Below are positions 3,955 through 58,554 of a stretch of DNA of 64,000 nt, piece by piece; within the stretch, counting starts at the first letter, position 1; every line of letters begins with the position of its first letter. The stretch is from Candidatus Sungiibacteriota bacterium (lineage in GTDB: Bacteria; Patescibacteriota; Minisyncoccia; Sungbacterales; HO2-52-23). The stretch covers positions 186,702 to 250,701 of the forward strand of contig CP066690.1 of assembly GCA_016432465.1 (NCBI GenBank), in the 5' to 3' direction. The notes under the pieces were generated by a model. That model saw only the letters and a program-made list of their open reading frames with translations. It was not told the origin of the DNA and did no database searches. The translations under genes were made by a program, and so were the position numbers.

Positions 3955-4024
3955 CCCCGTTAGAGATAAGTCCCGACGTGACGTCGGGACTGCCGATACC
4001 CAAGGCATCGGATCTCTAACGGGG
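3955..4024. mobile_element. MITE-like element (~70 bp) with 13-bp terminal inverted repeats CCCCGTTAGAGAT / ATCTCTAACGGGG and the internal hairpin GTCCCGACGTGACGTCGGGAC
   Basis: Terminal inverted repeats read directly; the same core recurs at 33032-33133, 56867-56968 and 58365-58554. Confidence 0.55.
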
Positions 4025-9997: not shown

Positions 9998-10020
9998 CTA
10001 TAGAGGTCGGACCTCTATAG
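9998..10020. repeat. REP palindrome CTATAGAGGTCgGACCTCTATAG (copy 1, 10 bp upstream of the RAYT start)
   Basis: 23-bp unit with perfect 11-bp arms; four copies in the window. Confidence 0.8.
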
Positions 10021-10030
10021 AGTAAAAGAT

Positions 10031-10711
10031 ATGCACAACCAACAGGTACCAGAAGACAAATACTATCATGTTTATAACAGGGGCGTAGAGAAGAGAGATG
10101 TTTTTCTGAATAACTCAGATTACCATAGATTCTTATATCTTCTTTTTGCGTGCAATGATACTGCCCAACTTCTAAATTCCCAATTTCACTATAGAGGTCC
10201 GACCTCTATAGTAAATAAAGAACGAGATCAGCTTGTTGATATTATTTGTTTTTGTCTTATGCCGAATCACTATCATTTAATACTAAAACCAAGAAAAGAG
10301 AACGGTATGCCATTATTTATGCAAAAAATTGGCACCGGTTACACGATGTATTTTAATACAAAAAGGCAAAGAAGCGGTGTCTTATTTCAAGGCGGCTACA
10401 AATCTATATTAATTGATAATGAAGGCTATCTTTCCCATCTGACTCGCTACATCCATCTCAATCCAGCCGAGCTTATTGAACCAAAATGGAAAAAAGTAGG
10501 TATACTTAAAGCCAAAGAAACACACAAATTTGTAAAAGAGTATAAGTGGTCAAGTTACCGTGACTATCTGAATACACCACATTTTCCTCATTTGCTAAAC
10601 GTGGAACTTATCAAAGAACTATTCCTGCCAAAACAAGAATACGAGTCTTTTGTCCACGAGTGGTTAGTTGATAATATAAATCTGTTGGGGCGATATACCC
10701 TTGAAGATTAA
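10031..10711 (+). CDS. REP-associated tyrosine transposase (RAYT, IS200/Y1 transposase family)
   Basis: YHVYNRG, HuH motif MPNHYHLIL, catalytic Tyr motif RYIHLNP, and the RAYT-specific KWSSYRDY (W.WSS) motif; flanked by REP copies. Confidence 0.8.
   Translation: MHNQQVPEDKYYHVYNRGVEKRDVFLNNSDYHRFLYLLFACNDTAQLLNSQFHYRGPTSIVNKERDQLVDIICFCLMPNHYHLILKPRKENGMPLFMQKIGTGYTMYFNTKRQRSGVLFQGGYKSILIDNEGYLSHLTRYIHLNPAELIEPKWKKVGILKAKETHKFVKEYKWSSYRDYLNTPHFPHLLNVELIKELFLPKQEYESFVHEWLVDNINLLGRYTLED
10189..10211. repeat. REP palindrome copy 2 (centre base inverted), in-frame inside the RAYT CDS, encoding HYRGPTSIV
   Basis: CTATAGAGGTCcGACCTCTATAG inside the 10031..10711 ORF. Confidence 0.75.
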
Positions 10712-10734
10712 CTATAGAGGTCGGACCTCTATAG
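10712..10734. repeat. REP palindrome copy 3, immediately after the RAYT stop
   Basis: CTATAGAGGTCgGACCTCTATAG. Confidence 0.8.
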
Positions 10735-22399: not shown

Positions 22400-22423
22400 T
22401 ATATCCTAATTTTAGCATAAATC

Positions 22424-22461
22424 CCCCCACCTTTCCAGCGGGGTATTCTGGGAAGGTGGGG
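22424..22461. repeat. GC-rich hairpin-family copy CCCCCCACCTTTCCAGcggggtattCTGGGAAGGTGGGGG between pgk and the DHH gene
   Basis: Same unit as 40119-40159 and 39171-39348. Confidence 0.6.
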
Positions 22462-22480
22462 GATAAAATATAAAGCAGCG

Positions 22481-31321: not shown

Positions 31322-32655
31322 TATTTATAATTTTTACCGCCGACTTTGATTTTTGATCCTTGTCCCGCAAAGGCCTCCGGATGACTTACGGTTTTTTGCC
31401 CGATTTCCAGCCGCACTGGAGAAATTTTTCGCAGTTTCTCCACTATTCCCGGGAAAACTTCCAAAACATAATCCAAATCTTCTTTGGTGGTTCGCCTGCC
31501 TAAAGTAAACCGCAACGAGCCATGTGCGTATTCGTATGGCCGACCTATGGCCAAAATCACATGTGAGGGGTCAAGCGTAGTTGAGGTGCAGGCAGATCCG
31601 GTGGAAATATAAATTCCTTTAGCGTCAAGATATAAAATCACGGCTTCACCCTCAATATCCAGAACCGAAATATTTATATTATTGGGGAGACGTTTTTTCG
31701 GGTGCCCGTTCAAAACAATTTTGGGAACGCGCTTCATAACTTCGCTGATAAAATAATCGCGAAGTTTTAGGAGCCGAGCGTTTTCTTTTTCGCGCTCTTC
31801 TTGCGCCAGCTCAAACGCCTTGGCAAACCCTATAATTCCCGGGATATTTTCCGTGCCGGAGCGCAGATTATTTTCCTGCCCTCCGCCATAAATCAAGGGC
31901 CTTAAACGGATGCCGCGCCGGATATATAGACACCCAACTCCTTTGGGCCCGTAAATTTTTGACCCGTTCATGGCCAGTAAATCAACTCCTAGTTTTTGAA
32001 CATCCATATCCAATGCACCGGCCGCCTGACAGGCATCGGTATGGAAAAAGATCGGAGTCGGATTACCTGCGACTTTTCGTTCCTCGCGTATCTCTTTTAT
32101 TATTTTCCCAATTTCCTCAATCGGCTCAATGGTCCCAATTTCGTTATTAGCATACATTATTGAAACCAAAATCGTATACGGGCGAATAGCTTTTTTTATT
32201 TCTTCCTGACGAACAAGACCGTATTCGTCCACATCAAGATAAGTTACTTCCCAGCCAGAGGCTGGTCCGCCCCCGGCGGAAAATCCTTCTTTTTCCAACG
32301 CTTCCAGAGAATGCAATACGGCATGATGTTCAATTTTGGAAGTAATTATGTGCCTCCCTTGATCCTTATACATTCGGGCAACCCCAAAAATGGCAAGATT
32401 TATTGCTTCTGTGCCTCCTCCGGTAAACACAAGCTCTTCGGATTTGCAATTCAAAAGCCGCGCGACGACTGAACGCGCACTATCCAACGACTCTTTAGCT
32501 CGGCGCCCGGGACGATATAAACTTGAAGGATTACCATATTCTTCTTCCCAATACGGTTCCATTGCCTCGGCGACCCGAGGATCAAGATACGTTGTTGCCG
32601 CGTGATCAAGATATACCCCGTTAGAGATATATTTTGGAGCTTCCTTTTCAGTCAT
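31321..32655 (-). CDS. nifS: Cysteine desulfurase (NifS/IscS), start taken at the internal Met MTEKEAP
   Basis: YLDHAATT; PLP-Lys region SGSKIYGPKG; active-site loop STGSACTS. Confidence 0.85.
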   Translation of the reverse strand: MTEKEAPKYISNGVYLDHAATTYLDPRVAEAMEPYWEEEYGNPSSLYRPGRRAKESLDSARSVVARLLNCKSEELVFTGGGTEAINLAIFGVARMYKDQGRHIITSKIEHHAVLHSLEALEKEGFSAGGGPASGWEVTYLDVDEYGLVRQEEIKKAIRPYTILVSIMYANNEIGTIEPIEEIGKIIKEIREERKVAGNPTPIFFHTDACQAAGALDMDVQKLGVDLLAMNGSKIYGPKGVGCLYIRRGIRLRPLIYGGGQENNLRSGTENIPGIIGFAKAFELAQEEREKENARLLKLRDYFISEVMKRVPKIVLNGHPKKRLPNNINISVLDIEGEAVILYLDAKGIYISTGSACTSTTLDPSHVILAIGRPYEYAHGSLRFTLGRRTTKEDLDYVLEVFPGIVEKLRKISPVRLEIGQKTVSHPEAFAGQGSKIKVGGKNYK

Positions 32656-32703
32656 GTTCTTAACTGTGGAGAATATCACCCCCTTAGATGATTTGTTGAA
32701 CAA

Positions 32704-32716
32704 ATCTCTAACGGGG
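32704..32716. mobile_element. Solo MITE terminal-repeat remnant ATCTCTAACGGGG between the Rrf2 gene and nifS
   Basis: Matches the right-hand terminal repeat of the MITE family; imperfect partner CCCCTTAGATGA 20 bp upstream. Confidence 0.4.
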
Positions 32717-32726
32717 TAAACTTCCC

Positions 32727-33017
32727 TCATAATTTTTTAATAGTCCTTAACACCGGACAAAGTGAATAAATCGGCGCGTAAAAATCAATCAGGTTTCCAA
32801 CGGAAGCCGCCCGGCGACTTTCTGCAAGTCTATAACCACCACCCGCGCCCCTGCGAGACTCTAACCAACCGGCGTGTTTAAGTTCCTGCGCAACCTTCTC
32901 AAGATACGCTCGGGGGAGATGGAACTCCCCGGCTACGGTCCGTACGTCCGCGAACGTTTCTTTCTTCTGCTTCAAGTATTCAATTAATATTAATGCGTAA
33001 TCAAAACGCTTTTTCAT
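32727..33017 (-). CDS. Rrf2-family transcriptional regulator (IscR-like), apparently C-terminally truncated
   Basis: HTH region plus RRGAGGGYRL signature; only 96 aa; lacks the Cys-ligand region of IscR. Confidence 0.6.
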   Translation of the reverse strand: MKKRFDYALILIEYLKQKKETFADVRTVAGEFHLPRAYLEKVAQELKHAGWLESRRGAGGGYRLAESRRAASVGNLIDFYAPIYSLCPVLRTIKKL

Positions 33018-33018
33018 C

Positions 33019-33227
33019 CCGATAGTGATTTATCCCGTTAGAGATTTATTACGTATGGAAACATGCAGTAAGACGCGTTCCGCATACATTGATATCCTAC
33101 AAACCGCATTTAGTTCCATATCTCTAACGGGATTTACGGTTAGACTTGATAAATAACTTACTCCCATAGTAATTATACATATTATAACCCCGGCAGGTAT
33201 GAACTTTATCACTATCGGGATTCATAA
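33019..33227. mobile_element. Nested MITE-like element: outer inverted repeat TCCCGATAGTGAT / ATCACTATCGGGA enclosing an inner element (33032-33133) with ATCCCGTTAGAGAT / ATCTCTAACGGGAT terminal repeats
   Basis: Both inverted-repeat pairs read directly. Confidence 0.5.
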
Positions 33228-33275
33228 TTTCGGATACTTTTAGTCCGATTATATCTAAAAATATATAAGCCTTTT

Positions 33276-33298
33276 CTATAGAGGTCGGACCTCTATAG
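33276..33298. repeat. REP palindrome copy 4 (CTATAGAGGTCgGACCTCTATAG) just downstream of the peroxiredoxin gene
   Basis: Identical to the REPs flanking the RAYT. Confidence 0.8.
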
Positions 33299-39022: not shown

Positions 39023-39170
39023 ACCCTAAACGTAAAACAATGCTAAATCTGCAACAAGTGTACTTTTCCACACGATACTTCTCCGGTGCACACCCACATT
39101 AAAATTTGGTTTGGAGACGAGCGTCCATGACTTTCTAGGTGTGGGGTGATAAAAAAAGAAATCCATAAAT

Positions 39171-39348
39171 CCCCCCACCTTCCCAGCGGGGTATTGGACC
39201 CCGCGGGAAGGATTTCTACGGCACCCATTCATCCCCGCAGTCCAGCCTTCGTCCCGCTTCTAGCGGGACTACGGTCGCACGCCGCTATAGCTTTGGCGAC
39301 GGCGCGCGGAGTAGGCCAAGCTGCGGGGTATTCTGGGAAGGTGGGGGG
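39171..39348. repeat. Composite copy of the GC-rich hairpin family: the CCCCCCACCTTCCCAGCGGGGTATT hairpin interrupted by ~110 bp carrying the sub-hairpin GTCCCGCttctaGCGGGAC
   Basis: Half-sites at 39171-39211 and 39321-39348. Confidence 0.5.
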
Positions 39349-39602
39349 ATAAAAGATACTACACCACGTTTCGCTGTGTTATAATAAGAAGAGACGATGC
39401 AAAAATTGCACGCCTATAAGGTTTTTATCACTGGGGCACCTGAAAAACCTGGATCATAAAAAAGCTGTCAAGCACTTTGACAACCCCCACTTACTCACAA
39501 GTGGGGGTTGGTTGTTTACAAGGTGTGGGTAACTGCTGGAAATAGTATGGATAAGATCGGGACACCGCGCTGTACTTTGGCTGGTTTGGAGGCGGCCAAG
39601 GT

Positions 39603-40085: not shown

Positions 40086-40118
40086 GATTGACGTTGGTAA
40101 ACCCCCACACTCATAAAT

Positions 40119-40159
40119 CCCCCCACCTTCCCAGCGGGGTATTCTGGGAAGGTGGGGGG
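40119..40159. repeat. Canonical GC-rich hairpin CCCCCCACCTTCCCAG cggggtatt CTGGGAAGGTGGGGGG (perfect 16-bp stem), 9 nt 3' of tRNA-Gln
   Basis: Perfect palindrome; family recurs at 626-777, 22424-22461 and 39171-39348. Confidence 0.7.
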
Positions 40160-40167
40160 ATAAATTT

Positions 40168-40238
40168 CTCGGGGACAGGGAATCGAACCCCAATTTCGAG
40201 GTTCAGAGCCTCGCGTCCTACCTTTAGACGACCCCCGA
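40168..40238 (-). tRNA. tRNA-Gln (anticodon CTG)
   Basis: Hand-folded cloverleaf: acceptor UCGGGGG/UCCCCGA with the U1-A72 pair typical of bacterial tRNA-Gln; anticodon stem CGAGG/CCTCG, loop CTCTGAA; T-loop TTCGATT. Confidence 0.7.
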
Positions 40239-40248
40239 ACGTTTGAGT

Positions 40249-48450: not shown

Positions 48451-48612
48451 GGGAACCTCCTCTCGTTTGATTGCCGCAGCGGTATGCTACGGCAACAAAG
48501 AAAAAACTAACCTCTTAACTCCCTCTTTGTTGCCGTAGAATATAGCCTATTTTAAGATACTTAGTAGCTAACTCAATAGTAACATAAATGTAGAAAAAAG
48601 TCAAATAAATTA

Positions 48613-48777
48613 GCCTACCCCGGGACTTGAACCCGAAACCCATTTACCCCGTTAGATGTGCCAATGAGCCGGTGGTCGGATTTGAACCGACGACCCACGC
48701 TTTACGAAAGCGTTGCTCTACCACTGAGCTACACCGGCACATCTAACGGGGTTGCTCTGCCATTGAGCTAGGTCGGC
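48613..48777 (-). other. Split tRNA-like sequence whose 5' half (acceptor and D-arm) and 3' half (T-arm and acceptor) are separated by an insertion bounded by a perfect 16-bp inverted repeat (CCCCGTTAGATGTGCC) that contains tRNA-Thr
   Basis: 5' half GCCGACCTAGCTCAATGGCAGAGCAACCCC; 3' half GGGGTAAATGGGTTTCGGGTTCAAGTCCCGGGGTAGGCT; inverted repeats at 48647-48662 and 48736-48751. Confidence 0.35.
48667..48738 (-). tRNA. tRNA-Thr (anticodon CGT)
   Basis: GCCGGTGTAGCTCAGTGGTAGAGCAACGCTTTCGTAAAGCGTGGGTCGTCGGTTCAAATCCGACCACCGGCT; anticodon stem ACGCT/AGCGT, loop TTCGTAA. Confidence 0.75.
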
Positions 48778-48840
48778 ATTTCTAACGTTCCTGCTAAACT
48801 GTCAAACATCGAACATGTCAAACATTGAATGTCTGACATA

Positions 48841-50172
48841 TCAATTGTGATTAAGGGCTCCTTCAGTATAAATATTAGCGGCGTTCCAAAGGAGCCACCC
48901 GTGCGGCTCTGCTTTTTCTGCGGCTTCAACTTGTTTACGAATTTTCTCAACGCCCCATGGCCTACCAGCGACCCTATCTTCTTCATGGAAAAAATCTTCA
49001 AGCCACGGACGGAGACGCGCCCGGGAACGGGGAGTAGAACTTGCGGCTAGAGTTATTGCGGAAGTGGCCGGAGAAAAACCGTTAAAGGTGCTCGTGCTGA
49101 TTTTTCCATCAAGAAAATCTCTGGCAAACTGCAGCGAACGATATACCACAACGTCGGGATTTTTGCGGGCCTGCGACACACTAAAATTAACGACCGGTAA
49201 ATTCTTGTCCGGGTCGGCCTGAAGATAAAGTCCGCTGTAGTAGTGTGAAGGGTAAACCATAAATGATACGTAGTCAAAATTGTCGCCGATGTCATCTAGC
49301 CGCTGACCAATGCCCACGTCTCCGGCCCGAATCGCGGCGTACCCAAAAAGATCTGCCGAAAGTATTATATCCGGTTTGTGGGCCTTAAGATTTTTATTTA
49401 AATACTCAAAAAAACTTTTCATAACCGAGTACTTGGGGGCTTTTCCGTCCCAAGCAGGATAAATAGCATTCTCTACATCGCCGTCCGAAGGAAACCTTAA
49501 ATAGTCAAACTGCAATTCATCAAAACCCAAATCAATTATTTTTTTAGAAAAGTCCGCAATATACTCGCGCGCGCCCTGATGAGCAGGATCCAACCAATAG
49601 CCCCCGCGTTTATCGCGCCAAAAAACCACATCCGGTTTTTTACCCTCCGGACTTTTAGCGCGGAGATATTTTTTTCTGCCGCACTCATCGCCAACCGCTT
49701 TAGGACTTTTTCTGGTCAGGTACCAGTCGGGGTGCGTTTCAATCTGCGAGGCATCTTTGAAAGCAACAATCCGCGCAATAACCCAAATCTTTTTTTGATG
49801 AAGCTCCGCAATCAATTTTTTTAAACTTTCGGCGTTATAGTCAGGCCCGCAGACTTCTTTAACGTCAATCACAAGACCGTTGATCTCTGTCTCGTCAGCA
49901 AGCTCAATAATTTTCTTGCGAAGCCGTGTACCCGCAACACCCTGATCATTGGCCACGTCTGCTGTCATATAAAGTCCCTTGACGGTTTGGGACTTTTTAA
50001 GGGCTTCGGCCAGTAATTCTGCGGAGGTTTTTTCTTTAGCGGGCTGCATACCGGACGTCAAAATCCCACCAGCCAAATTGCCTATAAATATTTTTGGTGC
50101 GGCCCAGTAAATAGTTAAGGCGGCGGCACCAACTATGATTCCCGTGCCAAGACCCATCAAAAACCTATTCAT
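48841..50172 (-). CDS. Membrane-anchored putative glycoside-hydrolase-like TIM-barrel protein (GHL10/DUF4015-like)
   Basis: N-terminal TM; GYWLDPAHQGAREYI and FDELQFDYLRFP motifs. Confidence 0.55.
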   Translation of the reverse strand: MNRFLMGLGTGIIVGAAALTIYWAAPKIFIGNLAGGILTSGMQPAKEKTSAELLAEALKKSQTVKGLYMTADVANDQGVAGTRLRKKIIELADETEINGLVIDVKEVCGPDYNAESLKKLIAELHQKKIWVIARIVAFKDASQIETHPDWYLTRKSPKAVGDECGRKKYLRAKSPEGKKPDVVFWRDKRGGYWLDPAHQGAREYIADFSKKIIDLGFDELQFDYLRFPSDGDVENAIYPAWDGKAPKYSVMKSFFEYLNKNLKAHKPDIILSADLFGYAAIRAGDVGIGQRLDDIGDNFDYVSFMVYPSHYYSGLYLQADPDKNLPVVNFSVSQARKNPDVVVYRSLQFARDFLDGKISTSTFNGFSPATSAITLAASSTPRSRARLRPWLEDFFHEEDRVAGRPWGVEKIRKQVEAAEKAEPHGWLLWNAANIYTEGALNHN

Positions 50173-50253: not shown

Positions 50254-51732
50254 TCAACCAAGATCGCCCTGCAGTCTTTTTAACCTCTTGATGTCTCTTG
50301 CTACGAGCTTATGGCTGCCCCGCAAAGAACTGGACACCGGTATGCTCCTACCTTTTACGCTAAATAAACCCCAATCATAGTAACCAGAGAGTCCGCTTCT
50401 GACCAAGGCCGTAATGTGACGTTTACGAAGCTCGGCTCTCGGAGCAGCCCTGTGCTCCCATAACACTTCACGCATCTCCTCATCCGAGAAAGGATCACGG
50501 CCGCCCAGACGCGCCTGCCACATATTATAAATACCGACCGGACTTATATCATGGTAGGCAAAATCAAACATACGCGCCCGGAAATCTGAATAATCAGACC
50601 TTTCCTTGCGACAATAATTATCCAGTAGCAGACGCTTTAAAGACCAGTCAGTATCATTAGCATACGCCTCCGGGTCGGTTCCTGTCCTAATAAGGTTGTG
50701 GGCATGTCTAAGAGTTCCCCTGATCTTATCGGACGTGTCTGTCGTTTCTCCTTCATAAAATTTGCGTAAAATCTCCAGCCACTCCAAAAGAACTTCCCGC
50801 ATACACCACTGGCCGCGTCCTTTAACAACTGTTTTTGCTCCAAGTGACGGGTCTAAAGAAAACGTCCGCAGGGCGTCATAAGGATCCTCTAAAAGCGGCA
50901 GGCTTGATCCTACGGGTCCTTTTTCAAAAAGAGAAAGAAAGACGTGCATAAGTGTCACCCGTAAACGAAGCGCTTGAGGCAACATGTTAGGGTCCCCAAG
51001 AGAAAGATGCAAACGCGTCCTGCCTTGAGGACAGTCTTCCCTTTCATTTTTAAAGTCAATAGATGGATGTCCACTCATCTCACCGTGCCAATAAACAAAT
51101 GGCTGGCGCATAAGTGCACGGGGAGAGATAACGTACTGCCACCCCAATCCGTCAAGATTCACTAAACCCCCTCCTCCAGCTAACAGCTGTCTTGAAACCA
51201 GAAGAGAAATCAAGGCTTCAAAAAATAATGGATGTTTCTGGTGGATCGTCAAATCATATCTGGTTTCGTAATTCTCATGCGAGCCGCGGAAATGGATTTT
51301 TTTGGACTTACCCCTGACAGCGTCAGAGTTATTCTTTGCAATAACCAGTGTTTTAAATTGCGGATTTTGTGAACGGAGGACTGGTTCTATGGCCTCACGC
51401 AGCAGATTAATAACCCGCTCGCCGCCCTTATCTGCCCGTACAAGCTGCTCCACGCTGCAGCACTCCGGCGTAGCGTACTCAACGTTGCCGGCATCAAGAT
51501 AAAGCGCGCCGCCGGTTGAACCTAACCAAAAGTCTTTTCCGGCGTCCCCCATCAAAAAAAGTTTCTTGACTGCGGGTGGACAGCCATCGTCTGCAAGAGA
51601 GATAATCTGATGTACTGGTTTAAAAAAATACATGTCCACCTTTACCATACTTGAAAACCTGTTCTTGTTGTTTTTTGTACGTACTGCGGTCAGGCTATAC
51701 TCGGTCTCAATACCCATGGGGCGACGTTTCAT
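50254..51732 (-). CDS. PafA/Dop-family carboxylate-amine ligase (Pup--protein ligase / depupylase homologue)
   Basis: MKRRPMGIETEYS, GGALYLDAGNVEYATPEC, KNNSDAVRGKS...GSHENY and DFAYHDI match PafA MQRRIMGIETEF, ARLYLDVGSHPEYATAEC, KNNTDSAG..GCHENY, DLAYHDI. Confidence 0.8.
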   Translation of the reverse strand: MKRRPMGIETEYSLTAVRTKNNKNRFSSMVKVDMYFFKPVHQIISLADDGCPPAVKKLFLMGDAGKDFWLGSTGGALYLDAGNVEYATPECCSVEQLVRADKGGERVINLLREAIEPVLRSQNPQFKTLVIAKNNSDAVRGKSKKIHFRGSHENYETRYDLTIHQKHPLFFEALISLLVSRQLLAGGGGLVNLDGLGWQYVISPRALMRQPFVYWHGEMSGHPSIDFKNEREDCPQGRTRLHLSLGDPNMLPQALRLRVTLMHVFLSLFEKGPVGSSLPLLEDPYDALRTFSLDPSLGAKTVVKGRGQWCMREVLLEWLEILRKFYEGETTDTSDKIRGTLRHAHNLIRTGTDPEAYANDTDWSLKRLLLDNYCRKERSDYSDFRARMFDFAYHDISPVGIYNMWQARLGGRDPFSDEEMREVLWEHRAAPRAELRKRHITALVRSGLSGYYDWGLFSVKGRSIPVSSSLRGSHKLVARDIKRLKRLQGDLG

Positions 51733-58364: not shown

Positions 58365-58554
58365 ATCCCGTTAGAGATGCAGGTCATATCCTTAATGCGA
58401 GCTTAGCGTGAAAAGCTATTTACCACTTGGTAATTTTCGGATTTGCACTTAATTCTCTAACGGGATTTATGCAGTACTGAAACGATTGATACACACACTC
58501 CGCCATTCTTACTGATGTCGCAAAAAACACTGCATTCCGCGTCTCTAACGGGAC
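58365..58554. mobile_element. Composite MITE-like element: terminal repeat - unit 1 - terminal repeat - unit 2 (inverted copy of the 56867-56968 core) - terminal repeat
   Basis: ATCCCGTTAGAGAT at 58365-58378; ATTCTCTAACGGGAT at 58452-58466; GTCTCTAACGGGAC at 58541-58554. Confidence 0.6.

Follow-up and report, generated by a model that had tools for sequence, protein, structure and literature searches.

A complete gene for the transfer RNA (tRNA) tRNA-Thr(CGT) lies inside the remains of a second tRNA-Thr gene in a 64,000-nucleotide (nt) stretch of the genome of a Candidatus Sungiibacteriota bacterium (contig CP066690.1, positions 186,702 to 250,701). This 64-kb stretch is here called the window, and positions given without a locus label follow its numbering. 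The inner gene is bounded by a perfect inverted repeat that also forms the ends of short units elsewhere in the window and in many other genomes. We put at about 0.7 the probability that a cassette mobilised in trans entered a tRNA-Thr gene at its anticodon arm and assumed the function of that gene, whose outer halves have been decaying since. The original prediction, made from the letters and open reading frames (ORFs) of the window alone, had offered as one option a tRNA gene split by an insertion that carried a tRNA passenger and was related to local repeats like miniature inverted-repeat transposable elements (MITEs), and the evidence from the wider repeat family set out below supports that option.

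Structure of the nested locus

The nested locus covers 165 nt of the minus strand, from 48777 to 48613, and its parts, each read 5' to 3' on that strand, follow one another as the 5' part of an outer tRNA, a repeat arm, tRNA-Thr(CGT), the bases CATT, a second repeat arm and the 3' part of the outer tRNA:

48752..48777, minus strand: outer tRNA relic, 5' part, with the acceptor 5' strand, the D-arm and positions 26-27
48736..48751, minus strand: left repeat arm CCCCGTTAGATGTGCC, the core CCCGTTAGA followed by the leader TGT
48666..48738, minus strand: inner tRNA-Thr(CGT), called intact by ARAGORN
48647..48662, minus strand: right repeat arm GGCACATCTAACGGGG, which pairs with the left arm in the predicted fold
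48612..48646, minus strand: outer tRNA relic, 3' part, with the T-arm, the acceptor 3' strand and the discriminator T

The inner tRNA matches the Rfam model RF00005 over its full length (48738-48667, 73.7 bits, E=2.9e-14), which together with the ARAGORN call and the sequence itself confirms that a complete tRNA-Thr(CGT) is nested in a second tRNA. Its gene does not encode CCA, its nucleotides 1-3 are the last three bases (GCC) of the left arm, and the trailer CATT separates it from the right arm. The inverted repeat around it is perfect over 16 bp, as had been reported, and is lengthened by A48752/T48646 to a helix of 17 bp. The unit proper is the 103-nt segment 48750-48648, and its left arm fits the family consensus given below, with nine invariant and three covarying nucleotides.

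The outer 5' part (GCCGACC-TA-GCTC-AATGGCA-GAGC-AA) is without an anticodon stem strand and loop, and in the outer 3' part (TAAAT-GGGTT-TCGGG-TTCAAGT-CCCGG-GGTAGGC-T) the bases TAAA(T) are the remnant of anticodon-loop positions 36-39 and GGGTT is the variable loop. Six of the seven pairs of the outer acceptor stem are formed, with G4 opposite A69 as the mismatch, the D-arm pairs in 4/4 positions and the T-arm in 5/5, one of them a G-U pair, in agreement with the singly mismatched acceptor stem and normal D and T arms that had been described. The minimum-free-energy fold of the 165 nt contains the outer acceptor, D and T arms together with the 17-bp helix that bears the inner tRNA. A helix of about this length with the inner tRNA protruding from it had been foreseen, but as an extension of the outer gene's own anticodon stem, and this part does not hold: the ACCCC/GGGGT 'stem' is a feature of the repeat family, with the same ACCCCGTTAGA...TCTAACGGGGT present in the unit at 32617-32715, and of an anticodon stem or loop proper to the outer gene nothing is left.

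With introns of 0-3000 nt allowed and thresholds lowered, ARAGORN called the inner tRNA only and no outer one, and at E<=10 the outer halves gave no Rfam tRNA match within 48540-48860. The second option of the original prediction, an intron-like or permuted tRNA, is therefore not sustained, and permutation is excluded by the order of the halves, the outer 5' part lying before the outer 3' part. An antisense Trp call made by ARAGORN at the 80% threshold was discarded as spurious. Once the cassette is removed in silico, ARAGORN does draw a cloverleaf across the outer junction, but its anticodons are arbitrary. The outer gene is a decayed tRNA-Thr without an anticodon arm, and the nesting is cognate. 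Two TTGACA boxes lie 5' of it with poor -10 partners, and the region in front of it gave no call of a sigma-70-like promoter. The segment 48641-48757 also gives a sub-threshold Rfam match to the Vibrio small RNA MtlS (RF02268, 30.4 bits against a gathering score of 80), which is due to a likeness between the repeat stems, CCCCGUUAGAUGU in the window and CCCCGUUUGAUGU in the model.

Repeat-bounded units in the window and in other genomes

The repeat core CCCGTTAGA (complement TCTAACGGG) is present in 13 copies in the window, where 0.49 are expected and where 0/100 shuffles reach 13. The 13 half-sites form 6-7 units, and outside the tRNA locus they stand as inverted pairs about 98 nt apart at five loci, mostly intergenic; motif count and pairing thus bear out the earlier observation that the core equals the MITE-like termini at five other places in the window. 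These five loci are:

3956..4023: unit without tRNA, 68 nt, its interior folding into two hairpins
32617..32715: unit without tRNA, 99 nt, between a short Rrf2 gene and a cysteine desulfurase gene
33034..33131: unit without tRNA, 98 nt, with the flanking direct repeat ATTTA and an interior related to the 56869 unit and to locus L039
56869..56966: unit without tRNA, 98 nt, with the flanking direct repeat ATAAAT
58367..58552: two abutting units with a common middle half-site (58367-58464/58552), the second 89% identical to the 56869 unit and inverted

Flanking repeats of 5-6 nt are found at 3/5 of the tRNA-less units in the window. Beside the 32617 unit, the Rrf2 ORF has 96 amino acids and matches profile positions 1-78 of 132, and the cysteine desulfurase ORF is open in frame through the whole 99-nt unit, so that the start called for it at 32730 is probably incorrect.

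A scan of species-representative genomes for CCCGTTAGAG-N54-84-CTCTAACGGG returned at least 120 stretches, mostly from phyla of the candidate phyla radiation (CPR), among them Saccharibacteria, Uhr-, Kaiser-, Kerfeld-, Sung-, Moran- and Jorgensenbacteria and other CPR groups, and some of the listed stretches are in Omnitrophota, Planctomycetota and a few other taxa. Neither repeat pattern matched in viral contigs. The family consensus is YCCCGTTAGA+NNN ... NNN+TCTAACGGGR, with units of 60-120 nt whose interiors are mostly unrelated between genomes; within one genome they can be multi-copy, tandem or nested. Ordinary units have flanks of the form xTNNAY | unit | RTNNAx, and the flanking 4-mers, with the consensus TNNA, are identical in 83/150 units, against a mean of 9.8 and a maximum of 19 in shuffled data. 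These flanking direct repeats are a mark of insertion, and the tRNA-less members of the family behave like non-autonomous mobile elements.

The arms pair over exactly three bases beyond the nine invariant ones in 149/278 units, this covarying extension taking 28 different triplets, where shuffled arms extend by 0.77 bases on average. A palindromic middle dinucleotide in the flanking repeat was found in no more than 8 of 92 cases, where 28.7 would be expected. Taken together, the exact 3-bp covariation and the rarely palindromic dinucleotide suggest that the arms pair with each other, possibly as a hairpin, or are copied from each other, and that the insertion site resembles the crossover site of a recombinase rather than the target of an ordinary transposase. 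At locus L154 (3850-3900 and 4150-4200), other short hairpin repeats with related ends (CCCCGTATAACAGC...GCTGTATACGGGG and CCCCGCAGAACAGC...GCTGTCTACGGGG) lie in or near tRNA fragments, which hints at sister families of the CCCGTTAGA element.

Units that carry tRNA genes

In the listed genome matches a tRNA lies inside the unit three times, always tRNA-Thr: in the window and in two Saccharibacteria. The unit at L016 (4950-5130) carries a CGT gene and sits in the D-loop of a Thr-like gene, whereas the tRNA-Thr(TGT) cassette of L086 (2600-2950) sits in the long variable arm of a tRNA-Leu(GAG), the sole non-cognate case seen, the Leu gene being called intact after in-silico removal of the cassette. 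The outer tRNA of L016 has a tRNA-Thr-like body with the anticodon CAC, which could be drift in a relic or a remoulded tRNA, and is followed by a TCTAACGGG of its own.

Metagenomes were scanned for the repeat pair enclosing a T-loop motif, a pattern that takes class I tRNAs with exact repeats only, so that the list of amino acids it gives is a lower bound. At least 120 matches were obtained, of which 120 are listed (L132-L251) and underlie the counts that follow. An intact tRNA was called by ARAGORN in 105 of them, namely Ala(CGC) 20, Val(CAC) 18, Pro(CGG) 15, Val(TAC) 14, Pro(TGG) 10, Thr(CGT) 9, Val(GAC) 7, Thr(TGT) 5, Gly(CCC) 3, Arg(CCT) 2, Arg(TCT) 1 and Thr(GGT) 1. The carried tRNAs listed are thus of the Ala, Val, Pro, Thr, Gly and Arg types only, and isoacceptors with C34 make up 67/105.

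For about 80-90% of the listed tRNA units the surrounding gene is a tRNA that has the same identity and runs in the same direction, the break falling for the most part at anticodon position 35/36 and in a minority in the D-loop. In the same share of units the 5' flank can be aligned with positions 1-32/35 of the carried tRNA, and the 3' flank with positions 35/37-72, these alignments beginning 5 nt from the repeat on each side; the flanks match the carried tRNA forward in 84/102 listed units and in reverse in none. Where outer Val genes retain anticodon bases, these are TA, GA or CA, the first two bases of the inner isoacceptor. A junction-spanning outer tRNA was called by ARAGORN for 64/105 of the listed tRNA-bearing units and for 0/173 of the tRNA-less ones, from which it follows that the only repeat-bounded units to interrupt tRNA genes are those that supply a substitute.

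The composites have a fixed layout. Val composites read stem-TTNA-TTCAC[unit]GCAAG-N38-stem and Pro composites stem-(TT)-CTTGC[unit]GTGAA-N36-38-stem, which places the break at 35/36 with the loss of 2-4 loop bases. Readings of TTCAC/GCAAG as a target duplication, as a bulge-helix-bulge or as the overlap region of a single recombination were tried, and none fits every tRNA type. Genes for a UPF0102/YraN nuclease-like protein lie within about 600 nt of nested units at L132, L172, L177, L191, L219 and L221 and about 1.7 kb off at L199; the units that they adjoin span Ala, Pro and Val types, and the adjacency may be conserved synteny.

Decay of the outer genes

A perfect acceptor stem, T stem and T loop are kept by 45 of the 101 outer genes among the matches listed, and the others are partly to heavily decayed, some being fragments. 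Across 29 related pairs of composites, divergence is 7% in the cassette, 28% in the outer halves and 49% in the DNA beyond. The 5 nt beside each repeat are as conserved as the cassette and so belong to it.

These figures bear on two explanations in which the outer gene would still be of use. The cassette could be an intron at the RNA level, or the outer gene a split tRNA, the inner tRNA being cut out and the outer halves ligated or annealed into a second functional tRNA. Such a product would draw on outer acceptor, D and T arms that are still foldable and on the 45 outer genes that look intact, the covariation of the arms over exactly three extra base pairs indicates that pairing matters, and the repeat helix could hold the halves together, as the leaders of split tRNAs do in Nanoarchaeum. 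However, the outer gene in the window is without any anticodon stem or loop, over half of the outer genes are decayed, and across the element family there is no single excision by which an anticodon loop of 7 nt would be regained, the Val composites giving loops of 9 nt. A helix perfect over 16-17 bp leaves no bulge-helix-bulge, the 103-nt insert has no group I core and no Rfam intron match at E<=10, and tRNA-less units, which splicing would tolerate, are inside tRNA genes in 0/173 cases. We therefore regard RNA-level restoration of the outer tRNA as highly improbable.

It is also very unlikely that the outer tRNA-like part is a functional shell that serves the inner tRNA in processing, in stability or as a decoy scaffold. 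The shell is recognisable in about 80-90% of the listed cases and the junction motifs are as conserved as the cassette, which favours such a role, but shell integrity ranges from perfect to nearly gone, the shell halves diverge four times faster than the cassette, and close relatives have plain tRNA-Thr(CGT) genes without a shell. A weak match to the bacterial Y RNA YrlA (RF02553, 13.5 bits against a gathering score of 69) would be in keeping with a shell; as an identity for the locus YrlA was rejected, the inner module being a bona fide tRNA.

Probable history of the window cassette

The window cassette aligns with three Thr(TGT) composites, L171, L185 and L248. All four have the 3-nt leader in the same position, a trailer CATYGRCA that repeats the acceptor 3' strand, the same right junction TCTAACGGGGTAAAY-RGGTY and no stem positions 40-42; the three TGT composites keep the outer 5' anticodon strand and TTTG, whereas the window has lost about 13 more bases there. 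The inner tRNA is closest to the tRNA-Thr(TGT) of the L185 cassette (64/72, 89% identical), to which it is nearer than to its own outer gene, and with the plain tRNA-Thr(CGT) that L007 has at the orthologous locus it shares 85% identity. Since a CGT cassette has a TGT cassette as its closest relative, the wobble base of the anticodon changed within the cassette lineage. At L157, a Thr(CGT) cassette lies in the anticodon loop of a tRNA-Thr(CGT) with GTAAAC duplicated on both sides, which is the look of a fresh insertion event.

The outer 5' part in the window agrees in 26/26 positions with the start of the tRNA-Thr(TGT) borne by the L086 cassette, and directly upstream of it lies one further feature:

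48778..48789, minus strand: AACGTTAGAAAT, a putative decayed left repeat with an AAT leader

AACGTTAGAAAT is comparable to CCCGTTAGAAAT-GCCGA... before the cassette-borne tRNA-Thr(TGT) in L171 and L248, and in L016 too a TCTAACGGG stands after the outer tRNA. These resemblances faintly suggest that the outer gene was itself once borne by a cassette, AACGTTAGAAAT being what may be left of the repeat and leader of that older cassette.

Repeated nesting is seen elsewhere. Three Val(TAC) genes lie one inside another at L206 (1340-1640) and L164 (1-260), and three Pro levels at L213 (1270-1580), each level being bounded by the same repeat and junction pentamers. The middle Val(TAC) gene resembles neither the gene around it nor the one within it and so speaks against copying in place, a second manner in which a nest could arise: an empty repeat hairpin might have entered a tRNA gene and had a copy of that gene synthesised into it, or tandem repeat-flanked copies might have recombined unequally. 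An origin in place would readily give inner and outer tRNAs that are cognate and co-oriented and that share lineage-specific features (the A32 anticodon arm in L157; 5' halves identical in 34/34 positions in L248), it would suit junction pentamers that occur in both orientations relative to the tRNA pair, and unequal exchange has expanded the 5' modules of L142. Apart from the middle gene of L206, which differs so strongly that the levels cannot be mutual copies, it is at odds with cassettes that diverge by 7% while the outer genes around them differ by 28% and the DNA on either side is unrelated, with the greater nearness of the window's inner tRNA to the L185 cassette, and with the 173 tRNA-less units, none of which is an empty hairpin inside a tRNA gene. 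An origin in place is accordingly improbable.

Orthologous loci could be compared only in relatives with a 69-73% identical DUF4015 protein (L007, L129, L130 and L131); in the 66-68% identical orthologues L004-L006 and L008 synteny 3' of the DUF4015 gene is lost. In all four of the closer relatives tRNA-Thr(CGT) follows the DUF4015 gene, and in L007, L129 and L130 it is plain and without the repeat, so that the tRNA is ancestral at this locus and the nest derived. L131 has a nested variant, in which a 5' tRNA fragment breaks off in the D-loop and is succeeded by CTTGC-CCCGTTACA, tRNA-Thr(CGT) and the end of the contig. The original prediction had named a call of the inner tRNA only, and relatives with an intact, different tRNA and no repeat, as signs of simple pseudogenisation by insertion; this is largely what was found, the plain gene of the relatives being a tRNA-Thr(CGT).

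The 5' junction, from the outer 5' part through the repeat to the start of the inner tRNA, is identical in contigs L001-L003 from three other sequencing runs. We hold it to be extremely unlikely that the nest is a mis-assembly of two tRNA-Thr loci or one state of an invertible, phase-variable segment. Short-read contigs from related samples do break inside or beside the locus, and inverted repeats around about 100 bp do resemble invertons; however, the three runs agree independently on the 5' junction, the same architecture is found in many unrelated assemblies, and the inner tRNA is inverted relative to the outer one in 0/84 orientable cases among the matches listed. The breaks themselves, which in the short-read (Logan) contigs of sister samples all fall inside or just beside the nested locus, make it likely that nested tRNA loci are under-represented in assemblies.

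Proposed mechanism of insertion and search for a mobilising enzyme

In the course of events that we favour, a trans-acting enzyme encoded elsewhere would move the units, and a cassette with tRNA-Thr(CGT) would have inserted, co-oriented, into the anticodon arm of an older tRNA-Thr gene. The older gene would thereby have been destroyed, its two halves persisting as relics with their flanking repeats decayed, and the cell would have depended thereafter on the cassette-borne tRNA. The inner tRNA would be transcribed from the upstream region of the old gene and released by the normal 5' and 3' processing enzymes, RNase P and RNase Z; it is presumably expressed and presumably the sole functional tRNA-Thr(CGT) copy. 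A survival filter explains the co-orientation and the absence of unrescued insertions. Probably the anticodon or D loop of the cognate gene was targeted under the guidance of structure or homology, and selection acted against insertions that do not restore the tRNA.

Several observations weigh against insertion of a mobile cassette as we propose it. There is no clean target duplication at the window copy, with GCAA on the left and TAAA on the right, and the outer anticodon arm is short of about 13 nt on the left and about 3 nt on the right, so that the insertion is reconstructed here by analogy with L157, L171 and L248. Most tRNA units have the asymmetric 5-nt junctions (TTCAC...GCAAG or the reverse complement) and not target duplications, and simple transposition does not predict fixed junction pentamers. 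Cognate specificity exceeds what a survival filter alone should give: the genes of the C34 isoacceptors, which prevail among the listed units, are dispensable and should withstand non-cognate insertions, yet non-cognate cassettes do not hit them, and guided targeting is suspected for this reason. Unequal recombination between direct repeats also shapes nested loci, L142 (3560-3960) being a stack of six Ala 5' modules with two 3' modules only. No independent assembly supports the 3' junction of the window locus: contigs L001-L003 end inside the inner tRNA and the Logan contig from the opposite side, L255, ends about 70 nt short of the outer 3' end, so that this junction rests on the window and on the same architecture in unrelated metagenomes. 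Finally, a search of 1.6 Mb of loci brought to light no autonomous element or enzyme that has these ends, no repeat pairs 700-3000 bp apart enclosing a convincing transposase and no ORFs beside solitary half-sites, and a Pfam/NCBIfam scan of about 45 window ORFs gave no convincing mobilising enzyme and no integrase family.

Clustering of 617 neighbouring ORFs drew out a family of large serine recombinases, whose genes lie 0-500 nt from nested tRNAs at 4/120 listed loci. The proteins have about 500 amino acids and are 78-91% identical across many CPR phyla, with 7817 matches at E<=1e-20 among 8000 candidates scored; the genes are at L154 2287-3819, L156 2719-4293, L134 996-2069 and L200 254-1804, and at L252-L254. 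A conserved non-coding stretch of about 300 nt (GCGAAATGCGTTCGGACTAATTCAAGAATAC...) precedes the gene, and its 3' end overlaps antisense tRNA genes of varying identity. We do not claim this family as the mobilising enzyme, as it goes with tRNA genes generally and occurs without the repeat.

A more specific form of the mechanism, which we offer as a tentative possibility with the odds against it, is a selfish system of the homing type. A structure- or hairpin-specific recombinase acting in trans would place the cassette at one set position, 35/36 of the anticodon or the D loop, in the cognate tRNA gene, recognised through the sequence or fold of the cassette's own tRNA, the host being kept alive by the replacement; successive rounds would build matryoshka nests and swap tRNA alleles between CPR lineages.

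Relation to known systems

Bacterial MITEs such as Correia/NEMIS, Nezha and RUP are like the units described here in being non-coding, multi-copy, 60-120 nt long and mostly intergenic, in having terminal inverted repeats and, in the ordinary units, short flanking repeats, in inserting into one another and in having to be moved by an enzyme encoded elsewhere. They differ in that the units have a 9-nt terminal core that is invariant across many phyla while the interiors are unrelated, arms with exactly three variable complementary bases, flanking repeats whose central dinucleotide is rarely palindromic, no parent insertion sequence within the 1.6 Mb of loci, and a sub-family that carries a complete gene of an essential type, a tRNA, and sits in the cognate gene.

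Integrases reportedly prefer one sublocation, the anticodon or the T loop, within tRNA genes, as Williams is said to have described in 2002. Integrative elements that target tRNA genes (phages, integrative and conjugative elements, and those with pNOB8/SSV-type integrases) resemble the cassette in inserting inside a tRNA gene, often at the anticodon loop, supplying tRNA sequence and leaving a displaced relic. Unlike the cassette, they are kilobases long, encode an integrase themselves and duplicate no more of the tRNA than what lies 3' of the crossover, whereas the cassette is about 100 nt long, has a whole tRNA as its sole content and has both old halves around it. Of the features by which such elements are recognised, the location in a loop and the duplicated tRNA sequence are seen, and an integrase inside the element is absent. 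The outcome of cassette replacement resembles an archaeal model of tRNA gene disruption (PMC3293823).

The disrupted tRNAs of archaea and algae, with bulge-helix-bulge introns or split or permuted genes, are also broken near the anticodon loop, and at the nested locus too a helix could join the halves. In contrast to them, the nested locus has no bulge-helix-bulge, splicing-endonuclease context, loop restoration or permutation, the interrupting sequence is itself a tRNA gene, and the host is a bacterium. Group I introns have been described in the tRNA genes of Patescibacteria, including at the unusual 35/36 site, in an account that does not mention the repeats described here (PMC13011429). They share with the cassette the phylum, the kind of host gene and the 35/36 position, but have at least 200 nt and a catalytic core and splice out, whereas the cassette, of about 100 nt and coreless, replaces the host gene.

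The ends of the units are also similar to integron attC sites and to the attP(+) of CTX phage (GTTAGAN/NTCTAAC against GTTRRRY/RYYYAAC), which likewise have pairing arms and conserved ends around variable interiors. The order of the boxes is inverted, however, GTT... coming first on both strands, and there are no extrahelical bases or unpaired central spacer. An integron attC site or cassette was accordingly rejected, the order GTTAGAN ... NTCTAAC holding on both strands and the window showing no cassette array and, among about 45 ORFs scanned, no integrase family. A REPIN/REP element with its RAYT was rejected as well, as the arms are not self-complementary and the RAYT-like gene of the window is flanked by a different palindrome. 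In the searchable literature no description of the motif, of nested tRNAs or of Patescibacteria tRNAs with inverted repeats was found. Descriptions of MITEs and integrative elements do not include an element of this size, a whole tRNA as cargo, nesting in the cognate gene, a fixed 35/36 junction or matryoshka stacks.

Neighbouring genes and other repeats of the window

The DUF4015, Pup-ligase-like and PBP1A genes that neighbour the nested locus have their best homologues in Parcubacteria and Sungbacteria-type CPR bacteria. The Pup-ligase family protein, at 50254-51732 (Pfam, 3.7e-54), adjoins the tRNA locus in this CPR genome.

The RAYT-like gene at 10031-10708 encodes a Y1/HUH transposase-like protein of 226 amino acids (Pfam Y1_Tnp, 1.5e-9) that scores 42 bits against the NCBIfam model for REP-associated tyrosine transposases, whose cutoff is 80 bits. 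The perfect palindrome CTATAGAGGTCGGACCTCTATAG flanks it at 9998-10021 and 10712-10734, and further copies lie inside the ORF (10189-10211) and at 33275-33298. A G/C-rich hairpin, CCCCCCACCTTCCCAGCGGGGTATTCTGGGAAGGTGGGGGG, is repeated at 22416-22469, 39164-39217, 39323-39353 and 40112-40165, one copy being directly downstream of tRNA-Gln (40167-40239), and these repeats are probably a family of terminator-like hairpins.

Implications

If insertion and replacement by a mobile cassette is the correct account, the minimal genomes of the CPR, in which we assume tRNA genes to be mostly single-copy, host a mobile element whose whole cargo is a tRNA gene and which survives by destroying and replacing the host's own copy of the tRNA that it carries. 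This would be a form of addiction, as loss of the element would be loss of the tRNA. It would also allow tRNA genes to be replaced horizontally and anticodons to be switched, the window having CGT and its closest relatives TGT, and it would give rise to tRNA pseudogene halves, which never appear in standard annotation. Where a tRNA is repeat-flanked, gene callers should search its surroundings for tRNA halves, and the loci gathered here are a natural set of more than 100 dated tRNA relics in which decay can be studied. How an element of 100 nt would find its cognate gene, and a fixed nucleotide position within it, is the mechanistic puzzle that such a system would pose.

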